Positions 15,402-63,389 of a stretch of 64,000 nucleotides of DNA are shown here, one piece after another. The notes beneath the pieces are model-generated. The model was given only the letters and a program-made list of their open reading frames with translations, was not told where the DNA came from and did not search any database. This stretch comes from Candidatus Doudnabacteria bacterium (GTDB lineage Bacteria > Patescibacteriota > Doudnabacteria > UBA920 > O2-02-FULL-48-8), in the NCBI GenBank assembly GCA_016182875.1, contig JACPFQ010000010.1, forward strand, positions 1,268 to 65,267. The letters run 5' to 3'. Within the stretch, counting starts at the first letter, position 1, and every line of letters starts with the position of its first letter. The position numbers were made by a program, and so were the translations under genes.

Positions 15402-16004
15402 TTATTGCCTGATTACGTCGGGGTGATCGGTAAAAACCCCATCGACTCCTAATCTTTTCACGTCTTCGAACAGGTTTTGTTCGTTTATCACAAAGGTATA
15501 AATCTGGAAACCCAATCTTCGCATCCACCACATACGCGCCGCAGTAAGAAGCGAGTAATGCGGATGGATTGAGTAAATTCTTAAATAATGGGAAAGTAGT
15601 ATCAAGAAGCTGAAGTAACGATTCATTTTTTGATTGATCGCCAGGCCCAGCTTGATATTTCTGTCCAAACTTCTGATCTTTCGCAAAATTTTAAGTTTAA
15701 ACGACGAGATCAGGACTTCAGACGGAAAATCCTTAATCATTTCGAGAAGCTGTTTTTCAAATCCGCTTTCTTTGATTTCCAAATGCAGTGCGACATTTAC
15801 TGCTTTCAAAACTTCTGTCAGCCGAGCTGAGCGCGGGTAAATTTTTTCCGGGTCCGCGTCGTGAGCGACTACGATTACACCATTTCTGTCTAGCCGCAAA
15901 TCCATTTCCACCGCATCCACTCCCAGCTCTATTGCTTTTTTGAAAGAACCAATCGTGTTCTCCGGTTCGAGCCCGGCCGCCCCTCTGTGCCCTATGATCA
16001 GCAT
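15402..16004 (-). CDS. glycerophosphodiester phosphodiesterase (GDPD) inserted between rplC and rplD
   Basis: Contains MLIIGHRGAAG...ENT...EMDLRL...HD, matching the GDPD signature. Confidence 0.75.
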   Translation of the reverse strand: MLIIGHRGAAGLEPENTIGSFKKAIELGVDAVEMDLRLDRNGVIVVAHDADPEKIYPRSARLTEVLKAVNVALHLEIKESGFEKQLLEMIKDFPSEVLISSFKLKILRKIRSLDRNIKLGLAINQKMNRYFSFLILLSHYLRIYSIHPHYSLLTAARMWWMRRLGFQIYTFVINEQNLFEDVKRLGVDGVFTDHPDVIRQ

Positions 16005-16014
16005 ACGGATTCGG

Positions 16015-16147
16015 AACGCGAGGGCTGGCGGCAAAAACTAGCTTTCGCAGACCGGCTCCATCCGGCCGAGAACGCAGGTCGCAAAATTTGCGGCTTCCAT
16101 GCCCAAATTTTGACGACCGGTAGTTTTTGCCCGACAGCCCGAGCGCT
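16015..16147. repeat. 115-nt structured inverted-repeat element, copy B (between GDPD and rplC)
   Basis: The two terminal repeats co-vary (gcggcaaaaactag / ctagtttttgcccg); the internal hairpins are conserved. Confidence 0.7.
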
Positions 16148-16710
16148 CATACGCTCTGAATCCTCACTATGCCGCCTCGAGCCCCAGGTACTGCTCCCTT
16201 CACTGCTATCAAATTCCGAGCAGAATCGACTTCCACTACTTCTAAATTTCTTACCGTTCTTATTCCACCCATCCTGCCGGCCATTCTTGTGCCCTTCATG
16301 ACATGCTGCGGAAACCTGCCGCCTATCGAACCCACCGCCCGGGGATGGTCGTGGCCGTGGGAAGCGGGAGCGCCTTTGAAGCTGTACTTCTTCACCGGCC
16401 CGGTAAATCCCCTGCCCTTCATTTGAGCTGTGACCTTAACGCGGTCTCCTGCCTGAAAAACATCCACTTTAACTTCTTGATCTTTGGCGAAGTCCTTAAC
16501 ATCGCTGGCCCGAAACTCGGACAATTTGCGGAATGGCCGCTTTTTGCTTTTACCAAACCCAACCTGTACCGCCTGGTACTTGTCGTTTTCCATGGTTTTA
16601 ACCTGGGTCACCTTCACCGGTCCCGCACGCAAAATCGTCACCGGGATAGACTTGCCATCCTTGAAAATCTGGGACATATTCAGTTTTTCCGCCAAAATGA
16701 ATTTAGTCAT
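16147..16710 (-). CDS. rplC: ribosomal protein L3
   Basis: Start trimmed to MTKFILAEK. Confidence 0.85.
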   Translation of the reverse strand: MTKFILAEKLNMSQIFKDGKSIPVTILRAGPVKVTQVKTMENDKYQAVQVGFGKSKKRPFRKLSEFRASDVKDFAKDQEVKVDVFQAGDRVKVTAQMKGRGFTGPVKKYSFKGAPASHGHDHPRAVGSIGGRFPQHVMKGTRMAGRMGGIRTVRNLEVVEVDSARNLIAVKGAVPGARGGIVRIQSV

Positions 16711-16808
16711 AGCATCCGGTTTAAAAAACCGCTCAGGATCCCTTTTTAACAAAGAAGCCTAAGCGGTTCTTCATTCGTTGGCGATATCCTTTGGGATCAG
16801 TCCAACTT

Positions 16809-17138
16809 TTACATTTTAATCTCTACGTCTACACCGGCCGGCAAATTCAGATTCGACAAGGCGTCAATGGTTTTGGGAGTCGGGTTGGAAATGTCGATTA
16901 ATCTTTTGTGAAGCCGCATCTCAAATTGCTCACGCGAGTTCTTGTGCACGAACGTAGACTTGTTAACGGTATACTTGGTTTTTTCGGTCGGCAGCGGCAC
17001 CGGGCCTAAGACTTTGGCTTGAGTCCTTTTGGCGGTATCGACGATCTGGCGCGCAGACTGATCTATAAGCTTATGGTCATAAGCTCTGATTTTTATCCTT
17101 ATTCGTCCTGATTCTTGCTTTTCTTGTTGTTGCGGCAT
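16809..17138 (-). CDS. rpsJ: ribosomal protein S10
   Basis: Contains [17 protein letters not shown]. Confidence 0.9.
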
Positions 17139-17218
17139 CTCAAATTAATTAAAGTTTTTTAAGTACAGCTTGCTTATTTTACATAAAAGAGCCACTCAGG
17201 TCAACCCTAGGATTCTAG

Positions 17219-17348
17219 AAGCGAGGGATAGTTGCAAAACTAGCCTTCGCAGGCCGGCTCATCCGGCCGAGAACGCAGGCTGCAAAATTTGGCTTATCAA
17301 TGCCGAATTTTGACAGCCGGTAGTTTTGCAATCTATCCCGAGCGACTG
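17219..17348. repeat. 115-nt structured inverted-repeat element, copy C (S10 leader, between rpsJ and tuf)
   Basis: gggatagttgcaaaactag ... ctagttttgcaatctatccc, with internal ggccggctcatccggcc and gcaaaattt/aattttgac hairpins. Confidence 0.7.
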
Positions 17349-17404
17349 ACCCGTCGCCCAAAGAGTATCAAAAGGACTAGCCTTGGCTAGGCTAGCCCTT
17401 TATT

Positions 17405-18592
17405 TTATTTGTTAATCTTGAGCACCACGCCAGCGCCTACAGTGTGTCCGCCTTCTCTGATTGCGAATCGTTGCTTTTCTTCCAATGCGACCGGGCTGAT
17501 GAGCTTAATCTCCAAACTGACGGTATCGCCAGGCATGACCATTTCTTGGCCGGCAGGTAATTCAACCTCGCCGGTGACATCAGTGGTTCGGATGTAAAAT
17601 TGCGGCTTGTAGCCTTTGAAAAACGGAGTGTGGCGTCCGCCTTCTTCCTTGGTCAGAATGTAAACTTCAGCGTCAAATTCGGTGTGAGGAGTCACTGAAC
17701 CGGGTTTGGCCAAAACTTGTCCGCGTTCAACTTCATCCTTTTTGGTTCCCCGAAGGAGAACCCCGGCATTATCTCCGGCGCGGCCTTCATCCAATTGCTT
17801 GTTAAACATCTCAATTCCTGTGACCACGGTCTTGCTGGTCGGACGCAATCCCACAATTTCAACTTCACCATTAAGTTTAACCACTCCTCTTTCGATTCTT
17901 CCGGTCACAACCGTGCCGCGGCCTTCGATTGAGAAGATGTCTTCAATCGGCATCAAATACGGCTTATCGACTTCGCGGACCGGTTCAGGAATATAAGTGT
18001 CCAGGGCTTCCACCAACTTCAAAATCGACGGTTCGCCGATTTCGGAGCTGTCGCCTTCCAAAGCCTTGAGCGCTGAGCCGCGAATAATCGGTGTTTCTTT
18101 GCCCGGGAATTGATATTTGGTCAAAAGGTCTCGCACTTCTTCCTCGACGAGGTCCAAAAGCTCTTTGTCGTCAACCATGTCAACTTTGTTGAGATAAACA
18201 ATAATGTAAGGAACTCCGACCTGGCGGGCCAAAAGAATGTGTTCGCGAGTCTGAGGCATAGGGCCGTCGGCGGCAGACACGACCAAAACCGCGCCATCCA
18301 TCTGGGCCGCCCCCGTAATCATGTTTTTGATGTAGTCAGCGTGCCCTGGGCAGTCAACGTGGGCATAATGCCTTTTTTCGGATTCATACTCCACGTGAGT
18401 GGTATTGATTGTAATACCGCGCGCCTTCTCTTCCGGCGCATTGTCAATCGAATCATATCCCCGCGCTTTGGCCTTGCCTTGCTTGGCCAAAACCGTGGTG
18501 ATTGCCGCGGTCAAAGTGGTCTTGCCATGGTCAACGTGGCCAATGGTGCCGATGTTGATGTGCGGCTTATCTCGCTTAAATTGCTCCGCCAT
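17405..18592 (-). CDS. tuf: elongation factor Tu
   Basis: [14 protein letters not shown] and NKVD G-motifs; 395 aa. Confidence 0.95.
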
Positions 18593-18840
18593 AAATTCTT
18601 GGTTTATCCTTGCTGAAATATGGTAGAAACTAGCTCGCTACGCTCGCGAAATTGATAGAAATTGGCCGTAGCTAATCTCTACTAGTTTCGCAGCCGAAGG
18701 CTGCATATTTCTATATATTTCTAAACAGCTTAATTAATAGCCCTAAGATTATAATGCTTTCGCTCCCTTTTGTAAAGGGCCTGATAATCTTAATACTTTT
18801 TCACGAAACGGTCAAATGGCTATGATTACTTTCAATTTAT

Positions 18841-18900
18841 CCTTCTCCCCTTGCGGGAGAAGGTGGCCGCAGGCCGGATGAGGGGTAGCAAAGTACCCGC
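18841..18900. repeat. GC-rich hairpin element (ccttctcccc-ttgc-gggagaagg + ggccgcaggccggatgagggg)
   Basis: Shares modules with the elements at 56996-57146, 24069-24196 and 59664-59745. Confidence 0.6.
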
Positions 18901-18937
18901 ATTAAGGCTATGATTTGAATACCAGAAGGAGGAAACA

Positions 18938-19150
18938 GTGGCGAAAACACGCCGGAAAGCTCCTCAGAAGCAAGAAAAGCCAGACTTTGGCAGGCTGTTC
19001 CTCCAGGTGTTTTTGTTTGTTCGGGGCGTCAGCAGCGACAACCCAAAAACCCAAAAGCGCTGTGGCAGACTGCTCAACGAACTCGCCGAAAAACGCAAAC
19101 CCAGGAAACGGAAGCTAGCGAGGAGACGTCATGGCAAGGCCGAGAACTAA
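18938..19150 (+). CDS. small highly basic protein (island ORF)
   Basis: GTG start 7 nt after AGGAGG. K/R-rich 70 aa in GC-rich DNA unlike the flanking sequence. Confidence 0.4.
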   Translation: MAKTRRKAPQKQEKPDFGRLFLQVFLFVRGVSSDNPKTQKRCGRLLNELAEKRKPRKRKLARRRHGKAEN

Positions 19151-19397
19151 CTGTTCTTCGGAAGCGGACGTGATGAGGCTCGTTAACTACGTGCTCAATC
19201 ACGACGGTCCCGACGAGCACCGCGAGACGCAGAAACACCTCAAGGTATGCGGTGAGTGTCGGGAAATGCTTACACTCATGCGCAAAGCCAAACGGCGCAT
19301 GACTAACCCCAACCCCGGGATTTCCATGGCTCTCCGCGCTTCAAAGGCAGAGAAAGCCAGAAAAGCTTTCAGAATCGTGCACAACGAAACGCGCTAA
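19131..19397 (+). CDS. small Cys/His zinc-finger protein, anti-sigma-factor (ZAS)-like HxxxCxxC motif
   Basis: RBS GAGGAG; contains HLKVCGECREML. Confidence 0.4.
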   Translation: MARPRTNCSSEADVMRLVNYVLNHDGPDEHRETQKHLKVCGECREMLTLMRKAKRRMTNPNPGISMALRASKAEKARKAFRIVHNETR

Positions 19398-19410
19398 CGA
19401 GGAGGCGCTT

Positions 19411-19575
19411 ATGGCAATTGCGTTGTGGGTTCTCAGTGCGGTCGCGCTGGTTCTCCTCGCTGGGGGTTTGATCTTGCGTCATTGGGCGGGGAAACCAATC
19501 AGCACCTTTGAACCGCGACCCATGGGGCGAGAATATTCCCCATACGACCCTGACGATCCTGAGTACATCGGGTAG
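19411..19575 (+). CDS. small predicted membrane protein (54 aa)
   Basis: RBS GAGGAGG 6 nt upstream of ATG; one hydrophobic helix. Not in the ORF track because it is under 60 aa. Confidence 0.35.
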   Translation: MAIALWVLSAVALVLLAGGLILRHWAGKPISTFEPRPMGREYSPYDPDDPEYIG

Positions 19576-19596
19576 AATCTTTAGCGGGAGGTGGCT

Positions 19597-19797
19597 ATGC
19601 CCGAGAAGTGGCGTGTGGTAGAAGTCGACCCAAATTGCGGCGCGGAAATCACGGGCCGAGACGCAGACAGTGAAGAAGACGCGCTCATGGCTGCCGGACT
19701 CATGAAAGGCTACCGGCTCATCAGGCGCCCGGACGGAAGCTGGTTTCAGTACGACCCGCCTGAGCCGAAGCCCGTGGACAGAGTTGATTGGTTCTAA
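19597..19797 (+). CDS. small hypothetical protein (island ORF)
   Basis: RBS GGGAGG followed by ATG; 66 aa. Confidence 0.4.
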   Translation: MPEKWRVVEVDPNCGAEITGRDADSEEDALMAAGLMKGYRLIRRPDGSWFQYDPPEPKPVDRVDWF

Positions 19798-19808
19798 AGG
19801 AGGGTGCC

Positions 19809-19997
19809 ATGACTTACGATCCGCAGGAGCTCCAGCGGCGGCACAACGAGACACAATGGCCTGGCGGCCATGATCCCGAAATTCGCGAATTCACGACGCA
19901 GCCGCGCCAACTGGAAAAAGCTGTTCGTGAAAAGCTCTCGCCCCGCCCGACCGGAAAGCGTGTTGAGCCCGGCGAACCAACCCATGGCGGAATCTAA
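19809..19997 (+). CDS. small hypothetical protein (island ORF)
   Basis: RBS AAGGAGG followed by ATG; 62 aa. Confidence 0.4.
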   Translation: MTYDPQELQRRHNETQWPGGHDPEIREFTTQPRQLEKAVREKLSPRPTGKRVEPGEPTHGGI

Positions 19998-20001
19998 AGC
20001 A

Positions 20002-20169
20002 ATGCTCACGAGTCCTGTTCCACTGGACCCCGGCAGACACGACGTGCCCATTCTGCCGCCGCCATTTCCAATAGATCCTAACTACCAGCCCGACAAACCT
20101 GTCTTGCCGGTAGTAGAAGAGGAGGAGCCCGAAGAGGACGGCGAAGATCCGGCCAGCGACGACGATTAG
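20002..20169 (+). CDS. small acidic Pro-rich protein (island ORF; start uncertain, alternative 19984)
   Basis: In-frame continuation; C-terminus EEEEPEEDGEDPASDDD. Confidence 0.3.
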   Translation: MLTSPVPLDPGRHDVPILPPPFPIDPNYQPDKPVLPVVEEEEPEEDGEDPASDDD

Positions 20170-20274
20170 TCAACCTGCGCTAACCGTCTTTTTTTATTTA
20201 AAGAGCCTTGTTCGCCCCAACGGCTCAAGTACTTGAGGCGTTAAAATACTTGCTTACGGGCCAGTAAGCAAGTC

Positions 20275-20302
20275 TACTGCAATACGTTCCCGTATTGCAG
20301 TA
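20275..20302. repeat. perfect palindrome tactgcaatacg-ttcc-cgtattgcagta (family member)
   Basis: Other copies at 30477-30504, 57758-57785 and 60105-60133; two further hairpins lie at 20224-20273. Confidence 0.7.
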
Positions 20303-20350
20303 TTAGGCAGCTATTCTAGTCAAAAAAAATAATCCGCTTAAGCCCAAAGC

Positions 20351-20749
20351 CTAAGCGGTGTGACCGACCTCGAGGTCGGCTATTGAGACAGGCCGAGTGC
20401 CCGGCTCTGCCCTTCCTCCAGCCTGCCACCGAACAACCGCCTTAAATGGCCGCGGAGGACGTCCGCCGTGTCTTCGCATGTCGCGAACTTCGTATCCGCT
20501 CAGAGCGTAGAGGTAAAGCACAGTGCCCGGATTGCCATACGCGCGTGAGCGGACCGTTTTGCCTACGTACTGCTCTTGAGCGGACTTGAGAATCGCGATA
20601 CGCTCGCTTTCGATAGTGCCGCCGGTGCCGTTGCCCATTTCAATGTAGCTAATCAGGCTTGCTGCTACCCGCAAAGTGGGCGGCACTTCGATACCACGCT
20701 CCCTGAGAAAATCGACCTGCCTGCCGATCGGAGGGGTCGGACGCTTCAT
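20351..20749 (-). CDS. hypothetical protein (132 aa), GC-rich
   Basis: Start MKRPTPP preceded by AGGGGGAAATGAG. Confidence 0.4.
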   Translation of the reverse strand: MKRPTPPIGRQVDFLRERGIEVPPTLRVAASLISYIEMGNGTGGTIESERIAILKSAQEQYVGKTVRSRAYGNPGTVLYLYALSGYEVRDMRRHGGRPPRPFKAVVRWQAGGRAEPGTRPVSIADLEVGHTA

Positions 20750-20790
20750 CTCATTTCCCCCTTTCATCCATAATGAAACATAATAGCACG

Positions 20791-20816
20791 AAAAGCAGGC
20801 TTTCGCCTGCTTTTCT
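20791..20816 (-). terminator. rho-independent terminator downstream of fusA
   Basis: Hairpin aagcaggc-tttc-gcctgctt with a T-run on the minus strand. Confidence 0.55.
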
Positions 20817-20917
20817 GTTAAGCGCGACGGGTGGCACGTTTGTTGGGGACCCCGACAGCGCGCAACGACAGTGAGCACTGGCGGGGTAACAAACGTGACA
20901 GGACCCGTCGCTCAAAG

Positions 20918-23044
20918 CTACTTGCCTACCTGTCCCACTCTTATCTTGCCAGTACCTTCAATTATTTTCTCGGCCACGTTTTTGGGCACTTCTTCGTAGT
21001 GATGGAACTCCATGGTATACGAGGCCTGGCCCTGGGACATGGACCGGATTTGCGTGGCGTAGCCGAACATCTCGGCCAAAGGCACTTCCGCGTCCACCAC
21101 CTTCACATTGCCCCGGTCGGACATTTCCAAAATCTTGCCGCGCTTGGCGTTCAAATCTCCGATTACATCGCCCAAAGAAGTTTCCGGGGTTATGACTTCC
21201 ACTTTCATGATTGGCTCAAGTAAAATCGGCTGAGCTCTCCTGACCGCGTCCTGGAACGCCATGGATCCGGCTATTTTGAAGGCTATTTCAGACGAGTCAA
21301 CTTCGTGGTAACTGCCGTCAGTCAAAGTAACCTTCCAGTCAATCACCGGGAAGCCGGCCAAAACACCTCGGTCAGCCGCCTCCCTGATTCCCTTTTCAAT
21401 CGGGTTTATATACTCTTTGGGAATCGTTCCGCCCACTATTTCATTGATGAACTCGGCTCCCTTGCCTGGCTCATTGGCCTCAAGATTGATTACGACGTGG
21501 CCATACTGGCCTCTACCTCCGGTCTGCCGGATATACTTGCCTTCCGCTTCAGACTTTCCTTTGATGGTTTCTTTATACGCAACCTGCGGCCGGCCGACGT
21601 TGGCCTCAACTTTGAACTCCCGCTTCATGCGGTCAACCAAAATTTCCAAATGCAATTCGCCCATGCCGGAAATCAAAGTCTGCTGGGTTTCTTCGTCAGA
21701 CTTTATTTTAAAGGTCGGGTCTTCTTCCGAAAGTTTCTGCAAAGCCAGACCCATTTTTTCCTGGTCAGCTTTGGTTTTCGGCTCGATTGCCACCGAAATC
21801 ACCGGTTCGGGGAATTTAATCGCCTCAAGAAGAATCGGATGCTCCAAATCGCAAAGCGTATCCCCGGTAAAAGTTTCTTTGGGGCCGACCAAGGCTGCGA
21901 TATCTCCGGCGAAAACTTCCTTGATGTCTTCACGCTCGTCGGCATGCATGCGGACCACGCGGCCGACCCGTTCTTTGTTGGTGCTGCGGGTATTTAAGAT
22001 ATAACTGCCCGCAGTAAGCGTGCCGGAATAAACGCGGAAGAAGGCCAGCTTTCCCACAAACGGGTCAGTGGCGATTTTGAACGCCAAAGCCGTGAACGGC
22101 TCTGAATCAGAAGGTTTGCGCACCAGTTCTTCTTTGGTTTTGGGATTGATGCCTTTGACATCCCCCCTATCAATCGGGCTTGGCAGAAAGTTGGCTACGG
22201 CATCAAGCAGGGTTTGCACAACAATACCTCGGCCATCGCCGCCCAACACCGGATAAAACTTGCCGGACTGCGTGGCTTTGCGGATGGCGGTCAGGAACTC
22301 CTGTTCATTCAACTCTTGGCCATTTAGATATTTTTCCATAAAAGCGTCGTCCGACTCAACAACCTTTTCCATAAGTTTGTGCCGCCAGGCTTTGGCTTTT
22401 TCCACTAAATCGTCCGGGATTTCGCCGACAGTAAATTCCTTGTCCGTGTATTGCTTGTAAATGTAAGATTTCATGGTCACCAAATCCACAACACCCGAGA
22501 CATCCTTTTCGAAGCCAATGGGAATTTGAATAGGGTGAGCGTGCGGAGAAAGTCTTCTGTGAATCGCATCCAATGATTTATAAAAATCCCCGCCGGTCTG
22601 GTTTATCTTATTAATAAAGCACATGCGGGGAACATGATATTTATCTGCTTGTCTCCAGACTGTTTCGGATTGGGGTTCCACTCCCATTTTGCCGTCAAAG
22701 ATAACGACCGCGCCGTCGAGCACGCGCAAGGAGCGTTCGACTTCGACTGTAAAGTCCACATGCCCTGGAGTGTCGATAATATTGATTTTATGTTTAGTCT
22801 CAGCGCCAAGCTTGATAAGCTTAGGCGTCCAATAGCAGGTCACCGCCGCAGCCGTAATGGTAATGCCGCGCTCGCGCTCCTGCTCCATCCAGTCCGTCAC
22901 CGTTTCTCCTTCGTGAACCGAGCCGATTTTATGAATGAGGCCAGTATTATACAAAATACCCTCAGTGACTGTGGTCTTGCCGGCATCTATATGCGCTATG
23001 ATGCCAATGTTGCGCGTTGATTCAATTGGATACTCGCGTGGCAT
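20918..23044 (-). CDS. fusA: elongation factor G
   Basis: Contains [17 protein letters not shown]; 708 aa. Start trimmed to MPREYP, which overlaps the rpsG stop. Confidence 0.95.
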
Positions 23045-23045
23045 A

Positions 23046-23543
23046 TTACCTTCTCTGGAACCTCGCAAAGTGCGCAAAGGCTTTGTTAGCCTCAGCCATC
23101 TTATGCGTGTCTTCGCGTTTCTTCATGGCAGTGCCTATTTTGTTATACGCGTCCATCAGTTCATCCGCGAGCTTGGCAGCCATGGGCCTGCCTTTTTTGG
23201 CGCGGGCCGCGGCAATCACCCACTTCATGCCCAGAGTCGTTCGGCGCGGTTCCGCTACTTCCATGGGCACCTGATAGTTGGCGCCCCCGATTCTCCGGCC
23301 TTTGACTTCCACCATAGGTGAAACGTTTTTTATGGCCTGCTCGAAAATTGCTTTCGGCTCTGCTTTCGGGTCGGACTTCATTTTGTCTTGAATCAAATCC
23401 AAGGCCGCATAAACAATCTTCTGGGCCACGGATTTTTTGCCGCGCTCCATGACGTAGTTTATAAACTTGGCGACTTTAAGACTGTTGTACTTGTAGTCCG
23501 ATGTCGCAGGATGTCGTTTGTAAGTTCTGGCTTTCCTAGGCAT
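23046..23543 (-). CDS. rpsG: ribosomal protein S7
   Basis: S7-like 165 aa in the str operon order. Confidence 0.9.
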
Positions 23544-23632: not shown

Positions 23633-24046
23633 TTAGCTTTTCTTCGCTCCATATTTAGATCGTCCGCGCTTTCGCCCGTCCACGCCAGCCGTGTCCAGTT
23701 TTCCTCGAACTATGTGATACCGCACGCCTGGCAAATCTTTGACCCTGCCGCCGCGGATCATAACCACCGAGTGTTCTTGAAGATTATGGCCAATGCCTGG
23801 AATATAAGCCGTGACTTCCATGCCATTGGAAAGGCGAACCCTGGCAATCTTTCTGATTGCCGAATTTGGCTTTTTGGGAGTCGTGGTTGTGACTTTGATG
23901 CAGACCCCGCGCTTGAACGGACTGCCTTTGGCGAAAGTGTAAGGGCGGCCGGCGAGCAGGTTGAAACCGCGGTCCAGAGCCGGAGTTTTGGACTTGGCCC
24001 GAAGCGGGTGTCGTCCGTGTCGAACTAATTGATTAATGGTTGGCAT
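23633..24046 (-). CDS. rpsL: ribosomal protein S12
   Basis: Contains PTINQLVR...PKKPNSA. Confidence 0.95.
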
Positions 24047-30476: not shown

Positions 30477-30504
30477 TACTGCAATACGTTCCCGTATTGC
30501 AGTA
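30477..30504. repeat. palindrome tactgcaatacg-ttcc-cgtattgcagta
   Basis: Identical to the 20275 copy and preceded by aatcttga, as at 57750. Confidence 0.7.
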
Positions 30505-48940: not shown

Positions 48941-49014
48941 TGGTCGGGGTATCCGGAATCGAACCGGAACTACATGCACCCCATGCACGCGGGCTACCAC
49001 TACCCCATACCCCG
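48941..49014 (-). tRNA. tRNA-Pro (anticodon GGG), manual fold
   Basis: 7-bp acceptor cggggta/taccccg, T-arm tccgg-ttcgatt-ccgga, anticodon loop atGGGgt and encoded CCA. D-stem is only 3 bp. Confidence 0.6.
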
Positions 49015-49191: not shown

Positions 49192-49482
49192 TTACGGGCG
49201 GTTCAGGTCCTCGAGCTGGGCCCGATCGCGGGCGATCAGGCGCTCGAGCCGCCGAAGTCTGCGGGCACCTTCGCCCCAGGGTGCGATCGGGGCGTACTCT
49301 TCTCGCAGGAGTGCAAGTGCCTTGATGCGTTGTTCGATCGCACTCCCGAGGCGCCATCGAAGCCGTTCGATGGGGCTCCGTGGCCCGCGGGTGTGGGACT
49401 GGTCGTCCTCCTGACTCAAGGATTCCATACTCCTCCTCGAGTGCGAAGGTTCGCTGGGACCGCTGGTCGGCGTCATGGTCAT
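49192..49482 (-). CDS. small Arg-rich coiled-coil protein (island ORF)
   Basis: GGAGGA RBS 4 nt before ATG; GC-rich. Confidence 0.4.
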   Translation of the reverse strand: MTMTPTSGPSEPSHSRRSMESLSQEDDQSHTRGPRSPIERLRWRLGSAIEQRIKALALLREEYAPIAPWGEGARRLRRLERLIARDRAQLEDLNRP

Positions 49483-49901: not shown

Positions 49902-50117
49902 CTACGCGCCCTTAAAGTGTCCAAGCTCTTCGACGCGGCGATTGTACTCCTGCTGGAAGAGTGTGAACGCCCTGGCAGTCAGAACTTTCCTCCCGTCATG
50001 GCTGAAACGAAATACTTCGGGGAACTGCGGAGCCGACATGACGACCCGGAGACCGTCGGGCGTGAGCTGAGGGCGATTTTCATTTGATCGCTCGATGAAC
50101 AGAATGTTGTCCATCAT
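49902..50117 (-). CDS. small hypothetical protein (island ORF)
   Basis: AGGAGGA RBS followed by ATGATG. Confidence 0.4.
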   Translation of the reverse strand: MMDNILFIERSNENRPQLTPDGLRVVMSAPQFPEVFRFSHDGRKVLTARAFTLFQQEYNRRVEELGHFKGA

Positions 50118-50345: not shown

Positions 50346-50422
50346 TGGCGCCGCAGGCAGGATTTGAACCTGCAACCTCCGGTGGTGGGTCCCGGCGCTC
50401 TGCCAGACTGAGCTACAGCGGC
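50346..50422 (-). tRNA. tRNA-like gene with non-canonical anticodon loop (acCCAcc; nominal Trp/CCA), possibly pseudo-tRNA or att-site tRNA
   Basis: Perfect D-arm (gctc/gagc) and T-arm (gcagg-ttcaaat-cctgc), U8, GG in D-loop, CCA end. Acceptor has one U·U mismatch; anticodon stem has a G·A mismatch; C33 replaces U33. Confidence 0.45.
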
Positions 50423-50440: not shown

Positions 50441-50659
50441 TTAACGGGTGGCCGCAGCGCGGCCGCGCTTGATCTCGTTGAGGTAGAGCAAATGCGTGAT
50501 TTGCGTCTGAAGCGCGTTGTAGGCCGGGTGGCCCACAGGGGTGCGCGTCAGCTTCTTGCGCAGGCGTCGGGCCTCACGTTCACGAGCGGCAATCACCCGT
50601 TGAACTTCGGCGTTGAGGTTGAGTCCCAGTCCCTTGCCTTGATCCGGCGATGCAAACAT
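50441..50659 (-). CDS. small Arg-rich protein (island ORF)
   Basis: AGGAGG RBS; 72 aa. Confidence 0.4.
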   Translation of the reverse strand: MFASPDQGKGLGLNLNAEVQRVIAAREREARRLRKKLTRTPVGHPAYNALQTQITHLLYLNEIKRGRAAATR

Positions 50660-50669
50660 ACGGCCTCCT

Positions 50670-50870
50670 CTACGACATCAGTTCATCGGGTTTCGGGGTG
50701 GCCAATGGCCGACCCGAAGCTTCCGCAGCGGGCACGAATCCCTTGGCGGCGGGGAGATCAACCAACGTGGCTGATGAGGCATCACAGCAGCTGATGCAAT
50801 GCGCGCCTTCCTCGTCCACCTTCACCTTGGGATGACCACGGTAGTCAGTAACTTCTGCTCCACTCTTCAC
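50670..50870 (-). CDS. small Cys-containing protein (island ORF)
   Basis: GGAAGGAGG RBS with GTG start; contains HCISCCD. Confidence 0.35.
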   Translation of the reverse strand: MKSGAEVTDYRGHPKVKVDEEGAHCISCCDASSATLVDLPAAKGFVPAAEASGRPLATPKPDELMS

Positions 50871-56385: not shown

Positions 56386-57749
56386 TTCAAAGCTTTTTCT
56401 ATCTGTTTCTTGGTGATTGGCCCTTCTCTTAATATTTTAACATGTTCAATCAAAGAAACCACTGTGGATGGCTTTGTTTTCGGCAGTCCGCCGCCGTCCA
56501 AAAATGTTATATTCGTACTTAACTTGGACTTAGCAAATTGTTTCTTAACTTCCGAAATGGAATAACAATCAGGCCCACCGGCGATATTGGCCGAAGTGGT
56601 GGTGATTGGCTTGCCAAGTTCTTCAACTAAAGCTCGAGCTAATTTGTGCGCCGGATACCTTACCCCAAGCGTCCTAGTTCCTGCCGAAAGCATTTGCCAG
56701 GATTTACCTTTGGCCTTAAGCGGCAAAACAATCGTCAACGGCCCCGGCCAGAATTTTTTTATCAATTTCTTGGCGTGAGTATTAAGTTTGACTATTTTGC
56801 CAATACTATAATACGGCGCAGTATTAGAGTAAGAGCAAATAACGTGCACTGGTTTTTTAAACCCCCGACCCTTAAGCTTATACAGCTTCCTGACGGCAAT
56901 AACATTAGTTGCGTCCACGGCCAGGCCATAAGAAGTGTCCGTGGGATAAACCACAATACCGCCAGCCTTCAGGGTTTTTACAGCCTTTGAGACTGACCCC
57001 TCACCCCTAGCCCCTCTCCCTTTGGGAGAGGGGAACCCTAGCGCTTTATCCAAAGCGTCAGGCCGCAGTTCCCTTCTCCCATCGGGAGAAGAAATTCCCT
57101 CCCTCATCTCCCGCCGGGGGCTTGGCCGAAGGCCGGATGAAGGGTTGCCGAGCTTAAACTTTTTTATCACTCGCGTTACTTGATGCCAAAAATTAACTTC
57201 AGTAATCGCCACTTCTTGAGGAACGAAATTCAATCTGAGTCCTTTCCACTTTTGTGCAATCGCTTTTGCGTCAAGTGGATTTTTAAACATTGCCAAGGTT
57301 ATATGAGGGTAAAAATTTTTCAGAATATGTCGGCTGCCAAAATTCTTTCTATATTCCAGCCCCTGCTTGCTAACATGTTTGCTCGTTACCGGCATCATTC
57401 CCGTCCTTAGATCCCTAAGCGAGTAAACCATTGCTTCATGCAACGCTCTCAGCCTTTTCGAGTTGCTTAAACCAATACCAAACCAGGAACGGCCAACTTC
57501 ATTACCTACATCCAAAGCGATAGATCTAATTTCGGGTAGTTTATGTTTTTTTATAACATCCTGAATTATCTGTGCCATCTTTTTGAGTTTTTGATTAGAA
57601 GAACGAATATGGAATAAACTAACATGCGGGATCAGTATTTTATTATCCACAACAAAAATATGCGGATACCCTTGAGCCGCATGTTTTATTTGCGTTCCGA
57701 GTTTGTGTCTAAGCTCCGCCGGCGGCAGAATGACTATATCTAACAGCAT
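56382..57749 (-). CDS. continuous ORF: N-terminal 2H phosphoesterase (LigT-like, two HxT/S motifs) - GC-rich hairpin linker - C-terminal TsaC/YrdC (L-threonylcarbamoyladenylate synthase) domain
   Basis: PHVSLFHI and PHITLAMF (2H motifs); GGIVVYPTDTSYGL (YrdC motif). No stop across the 56996-57146 hairpin element. May be two genes with alternative start MREGISS at 57107. Confidence 0.55.
   Translation of the reverse strand: MLLDIVILPPAELRHKLGTQIKHAAQGYPHIFVVDNKILIPHVSLFHIRSSNQKLKKMAQIIQDVIKKHKLPEIRSIALDVGNEVGRSWFGIGLSNSKRLRALHEAMVYSLRDLRTGMMPVTSKHVSKQGLEYRKNFGSRHILKNFYPHITLAMFKNPLDAKAIAQKWKGLRLNFVPQEVAITEVNFWHQVTRVIKKFKLGNPSSGLRPSPRREMREGISSPDGRRELRPDALDKALGFPSPKGRGARGEGSVSKAVKTLKAGGIVVYPTDTSYGLAVDATNVIAVRKLYKLKGRGFKKPVHVICSYSNTAPYYSIGKIVKLNTHAKKLIKKFWPGPLTIVLPLKAKGKSWQMLSAGTRTLGVRYPAHKLARALVEELGKPITTTSANIAGGPDCYSISEVKKQFAKSKLSTNITFLDGGGLPKTKPSTVVSLIEHVKILREGPITKKQIEKALK
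56996..57146. repeat. GC-rich hairpin element inside the 2H/TsaC ORF
   Basis: cccctctccc-tttg-ggagagggg; cccttctccc-atc-gggagaag; tggccgaaggccggatgaagggt, as at 18841. Confidence 0.6.
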
Positions 57750-57757
57750 AATCTTGA

Positions 57758-57785
57758 TACTGCAATACGGGAAAGTATTGCAGTA
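57758..57785. repeat. palindrome tactgcaatacg-ggaaa-gtattgcagta
   Basis: Family member, between the membrane-protein stop and the 2H gene start. Confidence 0.65.
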
Positions 57786-58364: not shown

Positions 58365-61300
58365 TTATTTAATCACGAAGTTAATCAGTTTATCAGGCAC
58401 AAAAATTTCTTTGACGATTTTTTTGCCCTCCAGGTGCCTGTTCACGTTTTCGCCTGCCAAAGCTTTTTCTTTCACTTCCTGCTGAGAAGTGCCAGCAGGC
58501 ATTTCCAAAGTCGCTCGGACCTTGCCGAGCACCTGCACTACGAAGGTCACCTTCGTATCCTGGGCAAGCTTGGGATCAAATTTGGGCCATTCCTTCAAAT
58601 GAATCGAGTCTTTGTGACCTAGCTGGTGCCAAAGCTCTTCGGTCAGATGCGGCGCAAAGGGTGCTAAGAGTTTCAAAAATTCTTGCCATTCTTCTTTTGT
58701 TACGAAATCAACTTCAATCCTATTTTCATCTTCGCTAACCTTCCAAACCTCATTCAAATAAATCATCATCTGACTAATGGCTGTATTGAACCTAAAACCC
58801 TCGATATCTTGTGTTACTTTTTTGATAGTTTTGTGCAGTAGATTCTTTTTTTCAACCCTAGGCAAATCTTTGGATATTTCTTGATATCTTAATACTCTAT
58901 CCAAGAATCTCTTAATACCCATAATCCCTTTGTCATTCCAACTAACCGTGTCACCATGCGGGCCCAAAAACATTTCATACATGCGCAGAGCATCCGCGCC
59001 GAATTTTTCAATAATCTCATCGGGATTCACCACATTGCCCCGACTTTTGCTCATCTTTTCTCCATCGGGACCTAAAACAATCCCGTGCGGCACGCGCTTG
59101 GTGAACGGCTCCTTGGCTGTCACATGGCCTTGGTCATACAGAAACAAATTCCAGAAGCGCGAATAAAGCAAGTGCAGAGTGGTATGTTCCATGCCGCCGA
59201 AATAAACATCTACTGGCGTCCAGCGCTTCAATAATTTCTTACCAGCCATTTCTTTTTTATTATCTGGGTCCGCATAACGCAGCCAATACCAAGAACTGCC
59301 CGCCCATTGGGGCATGGTGTTCGTCTCTCTTTTAGCGGGGCCACCACAATTCGGACATTTCACATTCACCCACTCATCAATCGCGGCCAATGGCGACTCG
59401 CCGGTTCCTGTCGGCTCATAGTCTTTTACTTCAGGCAATGTCACCGGCAAGTCTTCTTCGGGCACAGGCACTGTTCCACAATTTTGGCAATGAATCAGCG
59501 GAATCGGCTCGCCCCAATAGCGTTGACGGGAAAATACCCAATCGCGGAGCTTGTACTGCACTTTCGGTTGCCCGAAATCCTTGGCTATTTTTTTTCTTGC
59601 TTCTTCTGTACTCATCCCGTCATATCCGTCAGAATTTATCAAAAGCCCTTCGCCGGTAAATAACTCCCCCTCACCCCCTCTTATATTAAGAGGGGGTTCC
59701 TCTGCAGTTTCACCTCCCCTTAAATTAAGGGGAGGCTGGGAGGGGTTATTGATCACGGTTCTTATCGGCAGTTTATATTGCTTAGCAAATTCAAAATCGC
59801 GCTCATCGTGGGCGGGTACAGCCATGATAGCGCCCGTGCCGTATCCCATAAGCACATAGTCCGCGACCCAGATTGGAATCTCCTCTTTGGTCGCAGGATT
59901 AACAGCGTAAGAACCTAAAAATATTCCGGTTTTTTCTTTTTCTACTGCGGCCCGCTGCATATCTGTTTTCTTTTTCGCATTTTCTATATATTTTTTAACT
60001 TCCGCCCAATTCTTGATTTGAGATTTAAGATTTGAGATTAATGGATGTTCTGGAGCCAAAACTAAAAATGTCGCCCCGGGCAAAGTATCAACTCTCGTAG
60101 TGAATACTGCAATACGTGACAGTATTATAGTAAGCAACTCAGGCTCTTGTTCATCTAAGAAATGAGGTTTGGCTGCGGCCGCTTTAATTAGATTGACACC
60201 AAGCTTTGCAGCATATGATTCTCCGTCTGACATCGCAACAACGTAATCTGTGGTATCTGATATAACTTTGAAGAAACCGCAATTCTTTATTACAGCTGCA
60301 AAATCAAAACCTTTTTTTGCCGCAGCTGTGACAGTCGGACGATTTTTACCATCCATAAACTTCCCAGTAAAAGGTGTTGCAACCAAAATTGCCCCTGCCA
60401 ATCTCGCGCCTCGTTCAAGCAAACGAAGCGCTACGATACCGCCGAACGAATGGCCAATAACTACGGTGTGTTCATCCAGGTTGCAATGCTGTTGTATAAA
60501 ATCTGCACACTCGTCATCCTTCGGCTCCTCCCCGCCGGGCATTTGAGGCGACTGAACTTCAAATCCTTTACTCTCCAACTTTTTCTTTAACCAAGTATAA
60601 AAATGATCTTTTGGTCTGCTTCCCCGACCATGCAAAATAATAAATTTCCTGATTCCTTTTTGCGCTATTGGAAATTCTATTTCAGCCCCCTCACTTTTAC
60701 CTATCCAGTTTTCCTGCTGGAGTTTCACTGGCTCCGGCCATTCTTTAAGTTCTTTCAGGCCTTCCAGCAACTTTTCGGCATATGCCGTAATTTTAAGATA
60801 CCACTGCCGCAGTTCTTTTTTCTCAACCACGGTGCCGCAGCGCTCGCAGCGGCCGTCGATGACCTCTTCGTTGGCAAGGCCGGTTTTATCTTTGGGGCAC
60901 CAGTTAATAAGTCCGGTCGCTTCGTAAGCCAATCCGGCTTTGTAGAATTGCAAAAAAATCCACTGCGTCCATTTGAAGTAATCTGGGTCCGTGGTATTGA
61001 TTTCCCGCGACCAGTCAAAGCTTATACCCCAGTTTTGCAGCTGTTTTTTGGCATTGGCAATATTTTTGGCCGTCGAAACGCGCGGATGAACTTTGTTTTT
61101 AATCGCGAAATTTTCCGCAGGCAAGCCAAAAGCGTCCCAGCCAATTGGGTACAGAACCTCGCAACCCTTCATGCGAAAATAACGGCTGTATGTATCCCCG
61201 GCTGTGTACGGCCGCAAATGCCCCATATGCAAACCTTCGCCGGAAGGATACGGAAACTCAATCAGCACGTACTTCTTCGGCTTTTTGCCGGCATCGGAAG

Positions 61301-62999: not shown

Positions 63000-63389
63000 T
63001 TATAGCATTGCAGCACGCCGCGAGCTTGGCATAGGTCTTGGTTTAACCAGCCAGCTTTTATTTTTACGGCTCTTTTCACCACTCACCAACCTGTCAATAA
63101 CCAGCTTATAACCATCACCGAATGCATCGTTCCAATTACTTATCTTGGCAATAGTTGAATCAGTAACTTTAAGAGTATTCTTTATAATGGCATAACTACA
63201 ACCTTCGTTGAGCATTTTTACGATCTCCAAGCGTTTCGACAGCATCTGAAGTTCCGTCCTAGTCAAAATGTCGTGGAGAAATTTATGAACCTCGTCTTTG
63301 GTTTCCAATAGTGTAAAGGCGCGCCAAAGCTGGTCAATCAGGAGTGACAGTTGCTCACGAGGAAGTTTTATTCTTGAAATCTTGGTCAT
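63000..63389 (-). CDS. TrpR-like YerC/YecD family DNA-binding protein
   Basis: Contains LTRTELQMLSKRLEIVKML..GCSYAIIKNTLKVTDSTIAKIS. Confidence 0.5.
   Translation of the reverse strand: MTKISRIKLPREQLSLLIDQLWRAFTLLETKDEVHKFLHDILTRTELQMLSKRLEIVKMLNEGCSYAIIKNTLKVTDSTIAKISNWNDAFGDGYKLVIDRLVSGEKSRKNKSWLVKPRPMPSSRRAAML

Follow-up and report, generated by a model that had tools for sequence, protein, structure and literature searches.

Analysis of the 64,000-nucleotide (nt) stretch of contig JACPFQ010000010.1 from Candidatus Doudnabacteria bacterium (hereafter the window) led to an islet of small orphan genes situated between the translation factor genes tuf and fusA. We estimate a probability of roughly 0.6 that the DNA from ~18841 to ~20790 was laterally acquired and became lodged in the fusA–tuf spacer. 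The islet is probably a decayed remnant or cargo fragment of a Patescibacteria mobile element or virus whose recombinase has been lost, and its donor would have had a higher GC content and used Shine-Dalgarno (SD) sequences. The window carries the str/S10 region on the minus strand, including rpsL (23633–24046), rpsG (23046–23543), fusA (20918–23044/77), tuf (17405–18592), rpsJ (16809–17138) and rplC (16147–16752). It belongs to a metagenome-assembled genome (MAG) labelled 'Candidatus Doudnabacteria bacterium', in which the NCBI annotation of the island proteins is hypothetical (HYV13_03895, HYV13_03915). Concerning elongation factor G (EF-G), the closest sequences among species-representative genomes present 74–77% identity and derive from MAGs labelled Saccharibacteria or Patescibacteria.

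The spacer, which runs from the start of tuf (18592) to the stop of fusA (20918), contains six packed open reading frames (ORFs) on the plus strand and one gene on the minus strand. The first ORF of the plus-strand cassette, p70 (18938–19150; 70 amino acids, aa), has a GTG start after GAAGGAGGAAACA and is overlapped by 20 nt by p88 (19131–19397; 88 aa). They are followed by p54 (19411–19575; 54 aa) with the SD sequence GAGGAGG, by the acidic p66 (19597–19797; 66 aa) with GGGAGGTGG and by p62 (19809–19997; 62 aa) with AAGGAGGG. The last ORF reads to 20169 from either 19984 (p61) or an ATG at 20002 (p55); it has no SD sequence and its start overlaps or abuts the stop of p62. The consecutive intergene gaps are −20, +13, +21, +11 and −14/+4 nt. 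The minus-strand gene p132 (20351–20749) encodes 132 aa. A gene caller applied independently to Logan contigs returned the identical set of 70, 88, 54, 66, 62, 55 and 132 aa. The coordinates and sizes proposed in an initial annotation, made from the sequence alone, are confirmed. Some of its details needed correction. An AGGAGG-type ribosome-binding site had been assigned to each cassette gene, which is right for five of the six and wrong for p61/p55, and p132 had been called convergent, which holds toward the cassette, whereas the gene is co-directional with fusA and tuf.

SD usage is the most telling difference between the island and its host and constitutes the strongest new evidence for a foreign origin. 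Five of the six cassette genes possess a 5–7-nt AGGAGG-type core located 4–7 nt from the start, while p132 is preceded by GGGGG-N7-ATG. Among the host ORFs a 5-nt SD core at 3–12 nt was detected in 5 of 64, with a random expectation of 4.5%, and the comparison with the island genes (5/7) is significant (Fisher p = 3.6e-4). Specifically, tuf, rpsG, rpsL and rpsJ lack an SD sequence and fusA has a weak partial one. On one strand, a stretch of 1,360 nt holds five ORFs of >=50 aa preceded by an SD core at 4–10 nt; 0 of 2000 dinucleotide-preserving shuffles yielded as many, with a maximum of three, and elsewhere in the 64 kb at most three such ORFs are clustered. AGGAGG motifs are concentrated at two places in the window, the islet and a patch at 49.0–50.9 kb. 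The initial annotation had allowed for the small ORFs being devoid of coding signal, which the shuffles contradict. It is very improbable that the ORFs are spurious or that the island is an assembly chimera; the former is further opposed by p132, which has about 100 homologues and a confident structural model, and the latter is treated below with the assemblies. Published work reports that part of the Candidate Phyla Radiation (CPR) has lost the anti-SD motif: the 16S rRNAs of a subgroup within Parcubacteria lack it, with detection in only 48% of that group (PMC9297842); the 16S rRNA gene of the present host lies outside the 64-kb window. Additionally, some host genes bear a TATAAT box ~18 nt before the ATG (e.g., at 63389), which suggests very short leaders.

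Composition points in the same direction. The DNA between tuf and fusA had been described initially as visibly higher in GC, and indeed the GC of the island is 0.55–0.60 versus a window mean of about 0.46–0.47, while every island gene (0.54–0.60) lies above the maximum (0.526) of 40 sampled host genes. The segment 19001–21000 is the most deviant 2 kb of the whole 64 kb by tetranucleotides (L1 z = +4.1), and after normalisation for GC its tetranucleotides correlate with those of the whole window at 0.456 (z = −4.95). The shift is sharp at the island edges: 18593–18840 is an AT-rich, host-like spacer (GC about 0.41), and the GC-rich DNA starts at ~18841 and continues to ~20912. In all island ORFs the second codon position has the lowest GC (GC2), which supports real coding. 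Both in GC and in tetranucleotides the island deviates in the manner expected of an integrative mobile element or prophage.

The fusA–tuf pair had been regarded as universally linked, an assumption that proved wrong for Patescibacteria. At 17 clearly non-CPR loci retrieved with EF-G the spacer measures 38–399 bp, compared with 99–4704 bp at 25 loci labelled as Patescibacteria lineages, where it exceeds 500 bp in 16 and 1 kb in seven; among MAGs with ambiguous labels the spacer extends up to 5069 bp, at a locus titled only 'bacterium'. The site between fusA and tuf is permissive in Patescibacteria and frequently accommodates additional genes; those of the relatives include pilin-like, membrane and other genes, and no tRNAs were detected in their spacers. 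In 26 of the 27 related loci with enlarged spacers the spacer has a lower GC than either flanking gene, in one (L046) its GC is about equal, and only in the present window is it higher. Twelve loci (e.g., L007 8742–9098, L009 8234–8605, L013 9929–10297), the two closest relatives included, have a conserved co-directional small gene in the spacer. Its product has a weak Phd/YefM-like N-terminus and an acidic tail, with sub-threshold Pfam matches and no obvious toxin partner in the spacer ORF lists. A hidden Markov model (HMM) constructed from these 12 genes did not match the six-frame translations of the window; accordingly, the ancestral content of the spacer has been lost or replaced here.

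None of the six cassette proteins has detectable homologues. A word-indexed search of 5.8 billion clustered proteins with p88 alone and with p70, p54, p66, p62 and p61 concatenated was negative, as were IMG/VR scans with p88 and p66 and a tblastn comparison of the concatenated cassette with 50,697 phage and 72,556 plasmid records. Pfam, PHROGs, NCBIfam and the PADLOC defence models gave no significant match for the cassette proteins, PADLOC gave none for the island proteins as a whole, and Rfam did not match the island region. The protein properties predicted initially hold on the translations. Specifically, p70 is very basic (isoelectric point, pI, 11.7; 23 Lys and Arg), p88 is basic and carries the arrangement C8…H36-x3-C40-x2-C43 (C-x27-H-x3-C-x2-C), p54 combines a hydrophobic N-terminus, similar to a single-pass membrane segment, with an acidic tail, and p61 is acidic and proline-rich (pI 4.1, 14 Pro). 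p62 is hydrophilic (grand average of hydropathy −1.55) and proline-rich (8 Pro), hence it looks disordered.

These properties had led to the suggestion of an anti-sigma or other regulatory cassette, or an anti-defence cassette, of phage or plasmid origin. Phage early regions typically contain small ORFs in tight coupling, and the HxxxCxxC motif of p88 is real and is complemented by an upstream cysteine. p88 has two weak matches to models of the anti-sigma N-terminus, to zf-HC2 of Pfam (PF13490; 15.7 bits, E-value = 0.016) and to the antisigma model of NCBIfam (14.2 bits, E-value = 0.032), and its single-sequence model consists of four helices (pLDDT, predicted local distance difference test, 68). 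However, both scores are below the curated cut-offs (22.2 and 100, respectively), the model has no fold match in the PDB at E < 4 and the sequence no match in the same database. No sigma gene accompanies p88 within 18.6–20.9 kb, and the product of the upstream p70 has no sigma domain match. Thus, 'anti-sigma-like' is for p88 a lead and not a finding. A tblastn match of p88 at three loci (L093–L095; E-value = 0.001–0.02) was located outside any ORF and was dismissed as chance. Given the negative PHROGs, IMG/VR, phage, plasmid and PADLOC comparisons, we regard a phage or plasmid cassette of this kind as quite improbable. What stands of the initial proposal, which also included an undescribed mobile module, is a compositionally foreign, self-contained unit between conserved genes.

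Concerning p132, a word-indexed search found only the protein itself, while an exhaustive HMMER scan yielded 103 representatives at E <= 1e-3 (best 9.8e-31), mostly of 120–145 aa. The family consensus is PT..Q..FL...GI..PPTK…LI.YI..GNGT, with a conserved G-N-G-T loop, and residues P23, G39, N40, R50 and G75 are nearly invariant; p132 is significantly similar to the family members over its full length, this loop included. The named members belong to Patescibacteria and Ryanbacteria; the family is not in Pfam or PHROGs, and a scan of IMG/VR with p132 gave no match. Scanning metagenomes with a degenerate motif returned at least 120 stretches, of which three among those listed are true members, none with a new context. 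The AlphaFold model obtained with the family alignment is confident (pLDDT 94.6; predicted template modelling score, pTM, 0.86) and shows three N-terminal helices followed by a small SH3-like β-barrel. By their pattern, the first two helices may form a helix–extended-loop–helix. Foldseek detected weak similarities to SH3-like, Tudor, KOW and KorB-C structures (E > 0.01). p132 represents an undescribed family, well folded in the model, that is worth cataloguing. Some of its homologues reside near mobility genes: in L087 the gene is part of a block of low-GC hypothetical genes, and a serine recombinase of 527 aa adjoining the transfer-messenger RNA (tmRNA) gene is encoded ~4 kb away, while in L099 it is close to an rve transposase. 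A large serine recombinase gene extends into the 3' end of the tmRNA gene at L087 (1989–3813) and into that of tRNA-Glu at L096 (3856–5458), both in Patescibacteria MAGs, indicating integrative elements at the two sites. An attachment (att) site for the L087 island was looked for and was not found.

Pattern scanning and folding provided candidate signals for expression. A near-consensus sigma-70-type promoter for tuf, TTTACA-17-TATAAT (11/12), is present as a motif match at 18748–18776 on the minus strand. Back-to-back with it, on the plus strand, lies a promoter-like site, TTTTCA-17-TATGAT (9/12), at 18798–18826, which is the putative promoter of the six-gene cassette. The cassette would accordingly constitute a six-cistron operon of orphan micro-proteins running opposite to the str operon and transcribed as one mRNA starting near 18833, with a GC-rich hairpin at its 5' end. 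This hairpin (CCUUCUCCC / GGGAGAAGG, 9-bp stem; 18841–18863, plus strand) is unique in the window and coincides with the start of the GC-rich DNA, while the structure of the complete 108-nt cassette leader is not significant (z = −1.4). Initiation would depend on the SD sequences, with possible stop/start coupling at the 20-nt p70/p88 overlap and at the p62/p61 junction, where the position of the p61 start and the lack of an SD sequence suggest translational coupling. The transcript may end in a cluster of three consecutive hairpins (20217–20302; z = −6.3 on the plus and −6.55 on the minus strand) situated between the cassette and the convergent p132.

p132, in turn, is a single gene that may have a promoter and a terminator of its own. 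A possible extended −10 element, TGCTATTAT (20780–20788, minus strand), immediately past the fusA terminator and ~30 nt upstream of the ATG, was read by eye and was not returned by the pattern scan; an intrinsic-terminator-like hairpin with a T-run (20334–20358, minus strand) overlaps the stop codon. On the same strand, fusA is followed right after its stop codon by a long imperfect GC-rich hairpin (20825–20912) and by a terminator-like hairpin, GAAAAGCAGGC-gaaa-GCCUGCUUUUC (20790–20815); the fold of 20775–20920, which comprises both, reaches −73.8 kcal/mol (z = −7.9). As a guess of low confidence, the islet may be a small regulatory set in which p88 would be a zinc-binding helical protein able to sequester a partner in the manner of anti-sigma factors, p70 a nucleic-acid-binding protein and p54 a membrane tether.

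The hairpin at 18841 and the three-hairpin cluster, by which the initial annotation had delimited the island, are real, but one of these hairpins has no value as a boundary. The last hairpin of the cluster, TACTGCAATACG-N4-CGTATTGCAGTA (20275–20302), is a 28-nt perfect palindrome with an identical copy at 30477–30504 and further copies at 57758–57785 and 60105–60132. Degenerate copies occur near 56803, 62970 and 63382, and none is expected by chance. As it is dispersed in host DNA, the palindrome is neither a mark of the island boundary nor a signature of the island. Its copies are found mostly between co-directional genes, and it may be a host terminator, an operator or an element similar to repetitive extragenic palindromes.

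Several observations weigh against lateral acquisition. The host-type palindrome inside the island implies that its two parts, the cassette and p132, may have arrived separately, or that the islet has resided long enough to gain host repeats. The GC excess originates partly from the amino acids encoded, with Arg, Pro, Gly and Ala raising GC at the first and second codon positions (GC1 and GC2), and GC at the third position (GC3) is 0.60–0.69 in the island, modestly above the 0.57–0.59 of tuf and fusA. Within the window no integrase, transposase or recombinase was found among the island ORFs or their neighbours; the search for flanking direct (att) or terminal inverted repeats gave only short, chance-level repeats between the edges, and there is no tRNA at the fusA–tuf site. 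The donor cannot be named because the cassette has no homologues. The contexts of the p132 family are also less clear than L087 and L099 suggest: the homologue of L096 is located directly beyond the tRNA-Glu that bounds an element with tyrosine and serine recombinases, i.e., outside that element, and those of L090 and L093 adjoin TrmB-type regulators. In view of these mixed contexts, the family is an accessory one in Patescibacteria, frequently located close to mobile DNA and not demonstrably cargo. Finally, the junction on the fusA side is covered by the MAG contig alone.

Several of these points would suit native, lineage-specific genes that arose or diverged in place within an expanded spacer and owe their odd composition to basic, proline-rich or disordered products. 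This explanation gains from the frequency of relatives with spacers of 99–5069 bp and varied gene content, from the palindrome copy, from the Patescibacteria affiliation of the named p132-family members, from the share of GC1 and GC2 in the GC excess and from the lack of mobility genes and att sites. Nevertheless, amino-acid content leaves the strong SD sequences on five of the six cassette genes unexplained in a host where they occur at chance level, and the tetranucleotide signature remains the most deviant of the window after normalisation for GC. The spacers of the relatives are lower in GC than their flanks in 26 of 27 cases, not higher, and in the two closest relatives this position is taken by another, conserved gene. 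We therefore consider a native origin possible, if unlikely, and retain the laterally acquired islet as the best explanation.

Assemblies of independent reads bear on the chimera alternative. The island is present at 100% identity in Logan assemblies of four Sequence Read Archive (SRA) runs; two of these runs also provided contigs (L001 and L005) that cross the tuf-side junction, likewise at 100% identity. The Logan contigs stop at 20872, at the apex of the long hairpin described above and 46 nt before fusA, and some start at 18840 or 18855. Taken together with the sharp change of composition at the edges, such ends might be attributed to a chimeric join in the MAG contig. However, they fall on the most stable hairpins, a plausible technical cause, and we read them as technical breaks rather than as evidence for an allele free of the island. 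The fusA-side 120 nt of the Logan contigs, moreover, include the fusA terminator. The shared ends at 18840 and 20872 were also considered as strain breakpoints, and this was rejected on account of the same hairpins. Exact look-ups of tuf, fusA and rpsJ aimed at an empty-site allele gave nothing or short contigs only.

A second GC-rich patch (GC 0.55–0.65) is located at 49.0–50.9 kb, around tRNA-Pro (48941–49014) and tRNA-Trp (50346–50422). It contains four small minus-strand ORFs (49192–49482, 49902–50117, 50441–50659 and 50670–50870), all with AGGAGG-type SD sequences, and is the 2-kb segment of the window compositionally nearest to the fusA–tuf islet. Its first gene and p70 have in common the start context GAAGGAGGAAAC-N-GTG. 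Three of the ORFs were compared with PADLOC and NCBIfam, two of them also with Pfam, and the ORF at 49902–50117 with Pfam only; no match was obtained. A bolder reading, which we hold to be rather unlikely, is that the islet and this patch are fragments of an undescribed Patescibacteria virus or mobile element with SD-reliant genes in a non-SD host, p132 being the first recognisable member of a new family tied to such elements. Were this the case, the genes of the element would either have been transferred very recently from a donor that uses SD sequences or be subject to a translation-initiation regime of their own.

Other features of the window were recorded as well. A repeat of ~110–140 nt is present in three copies (2680–2830, 16040–16150 and 17200–17365) with 72% mean column identity and an internal GC hairpin. 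At least two of the copies, one following rplC and one located between tuf and rpsJ, are intergenic; the repeat has no Rfam match at the gathering threshold and may be an element similar to miniature inverted-repeat transposable elements or a structured RNA. A glycerophosphodiester phosphodiesterase (GDPD) gene (15402–16034, minus strand) is located between rplC and rplD in the S10 ribosomal-protein operon. Between 30565 and 42668 there are six or seven paralogous genes with a conserved ~150-nt block (60–80% identity) at one end. The common block and the PEP-utilising-enzyme mobile domain of the one member scanned against Pfam make this region look like a tandem paralogue family.

If our reading of the fusA–tuf spacer is correct, the islet is an example of foreign DNA accepted even by the central translation operon of a reduced CPR genome. 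The leads of most use from this work are the difference in SD usage and the second patch of similar style: strong SD sequences in an SD-poor host provide a clean internal marker of foreignness, with which acquired DNA could be mapped in genomes of this kind. Should the 16S rRNA of the host lack the anti-SD motif, the question would be how, or whether, the islet genes are translated. Current understanding is unchanged unless expression or a donor element is demonstrated.

Comparison with known systems helps to place the islet. The Phd/YefM-like gene of the relatives likewise occupies the fusA–tuf spacer and shows that this spacer tolerates genes, but it is co-directional with the operon and not homologous to any island protein. 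Zinc-binding anti-sigma (ZAS) factors of the zf-HC2 type (PF13490; e.g., RsrA) share with p88 the H-x3-C-x2-C motif with an upstream cysteine and a small, basic and, in the p88 model, helical product, and p88 overlaps the gene before it, a frequent trait of anti-sigma genes; p88 differs from them in its sub-threshold Pfam and NCBIfam scores, in having no upstream extracytoplasmic function (ECF) sigma gene and in the lack of a structural match. The Patescibacteria integrative elements of L087 and L096 also contain blocks of small hypothetical genes with non-host GC, and the L087 block includes a p132-family gene. Unlike them, the island of the window has no recombinase, tRNA or tmRNA target or repeats, and the p132 homologue of L096 is outside the element. 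The moron, a concept of lambdoid phage genomics, and the small genomic islet both refer to extra genes of deviant composition that bring along a promoter and a terminator and separate a pair of conserved genes. The layout of the islet resembles this arrangement, with a motif-level promoter upstream, a hairpin or terminator cluster downstream, deviant composition, conserved and normally adjacent neighbours and no mobility genes. In contrast to phage morons, it lies in a cellular chromosome, inside the str operon and not in a prophage, it comprises six cistrons plus a convergent gene, and the signals from which its translation starts are unlike those of the host that carries it.

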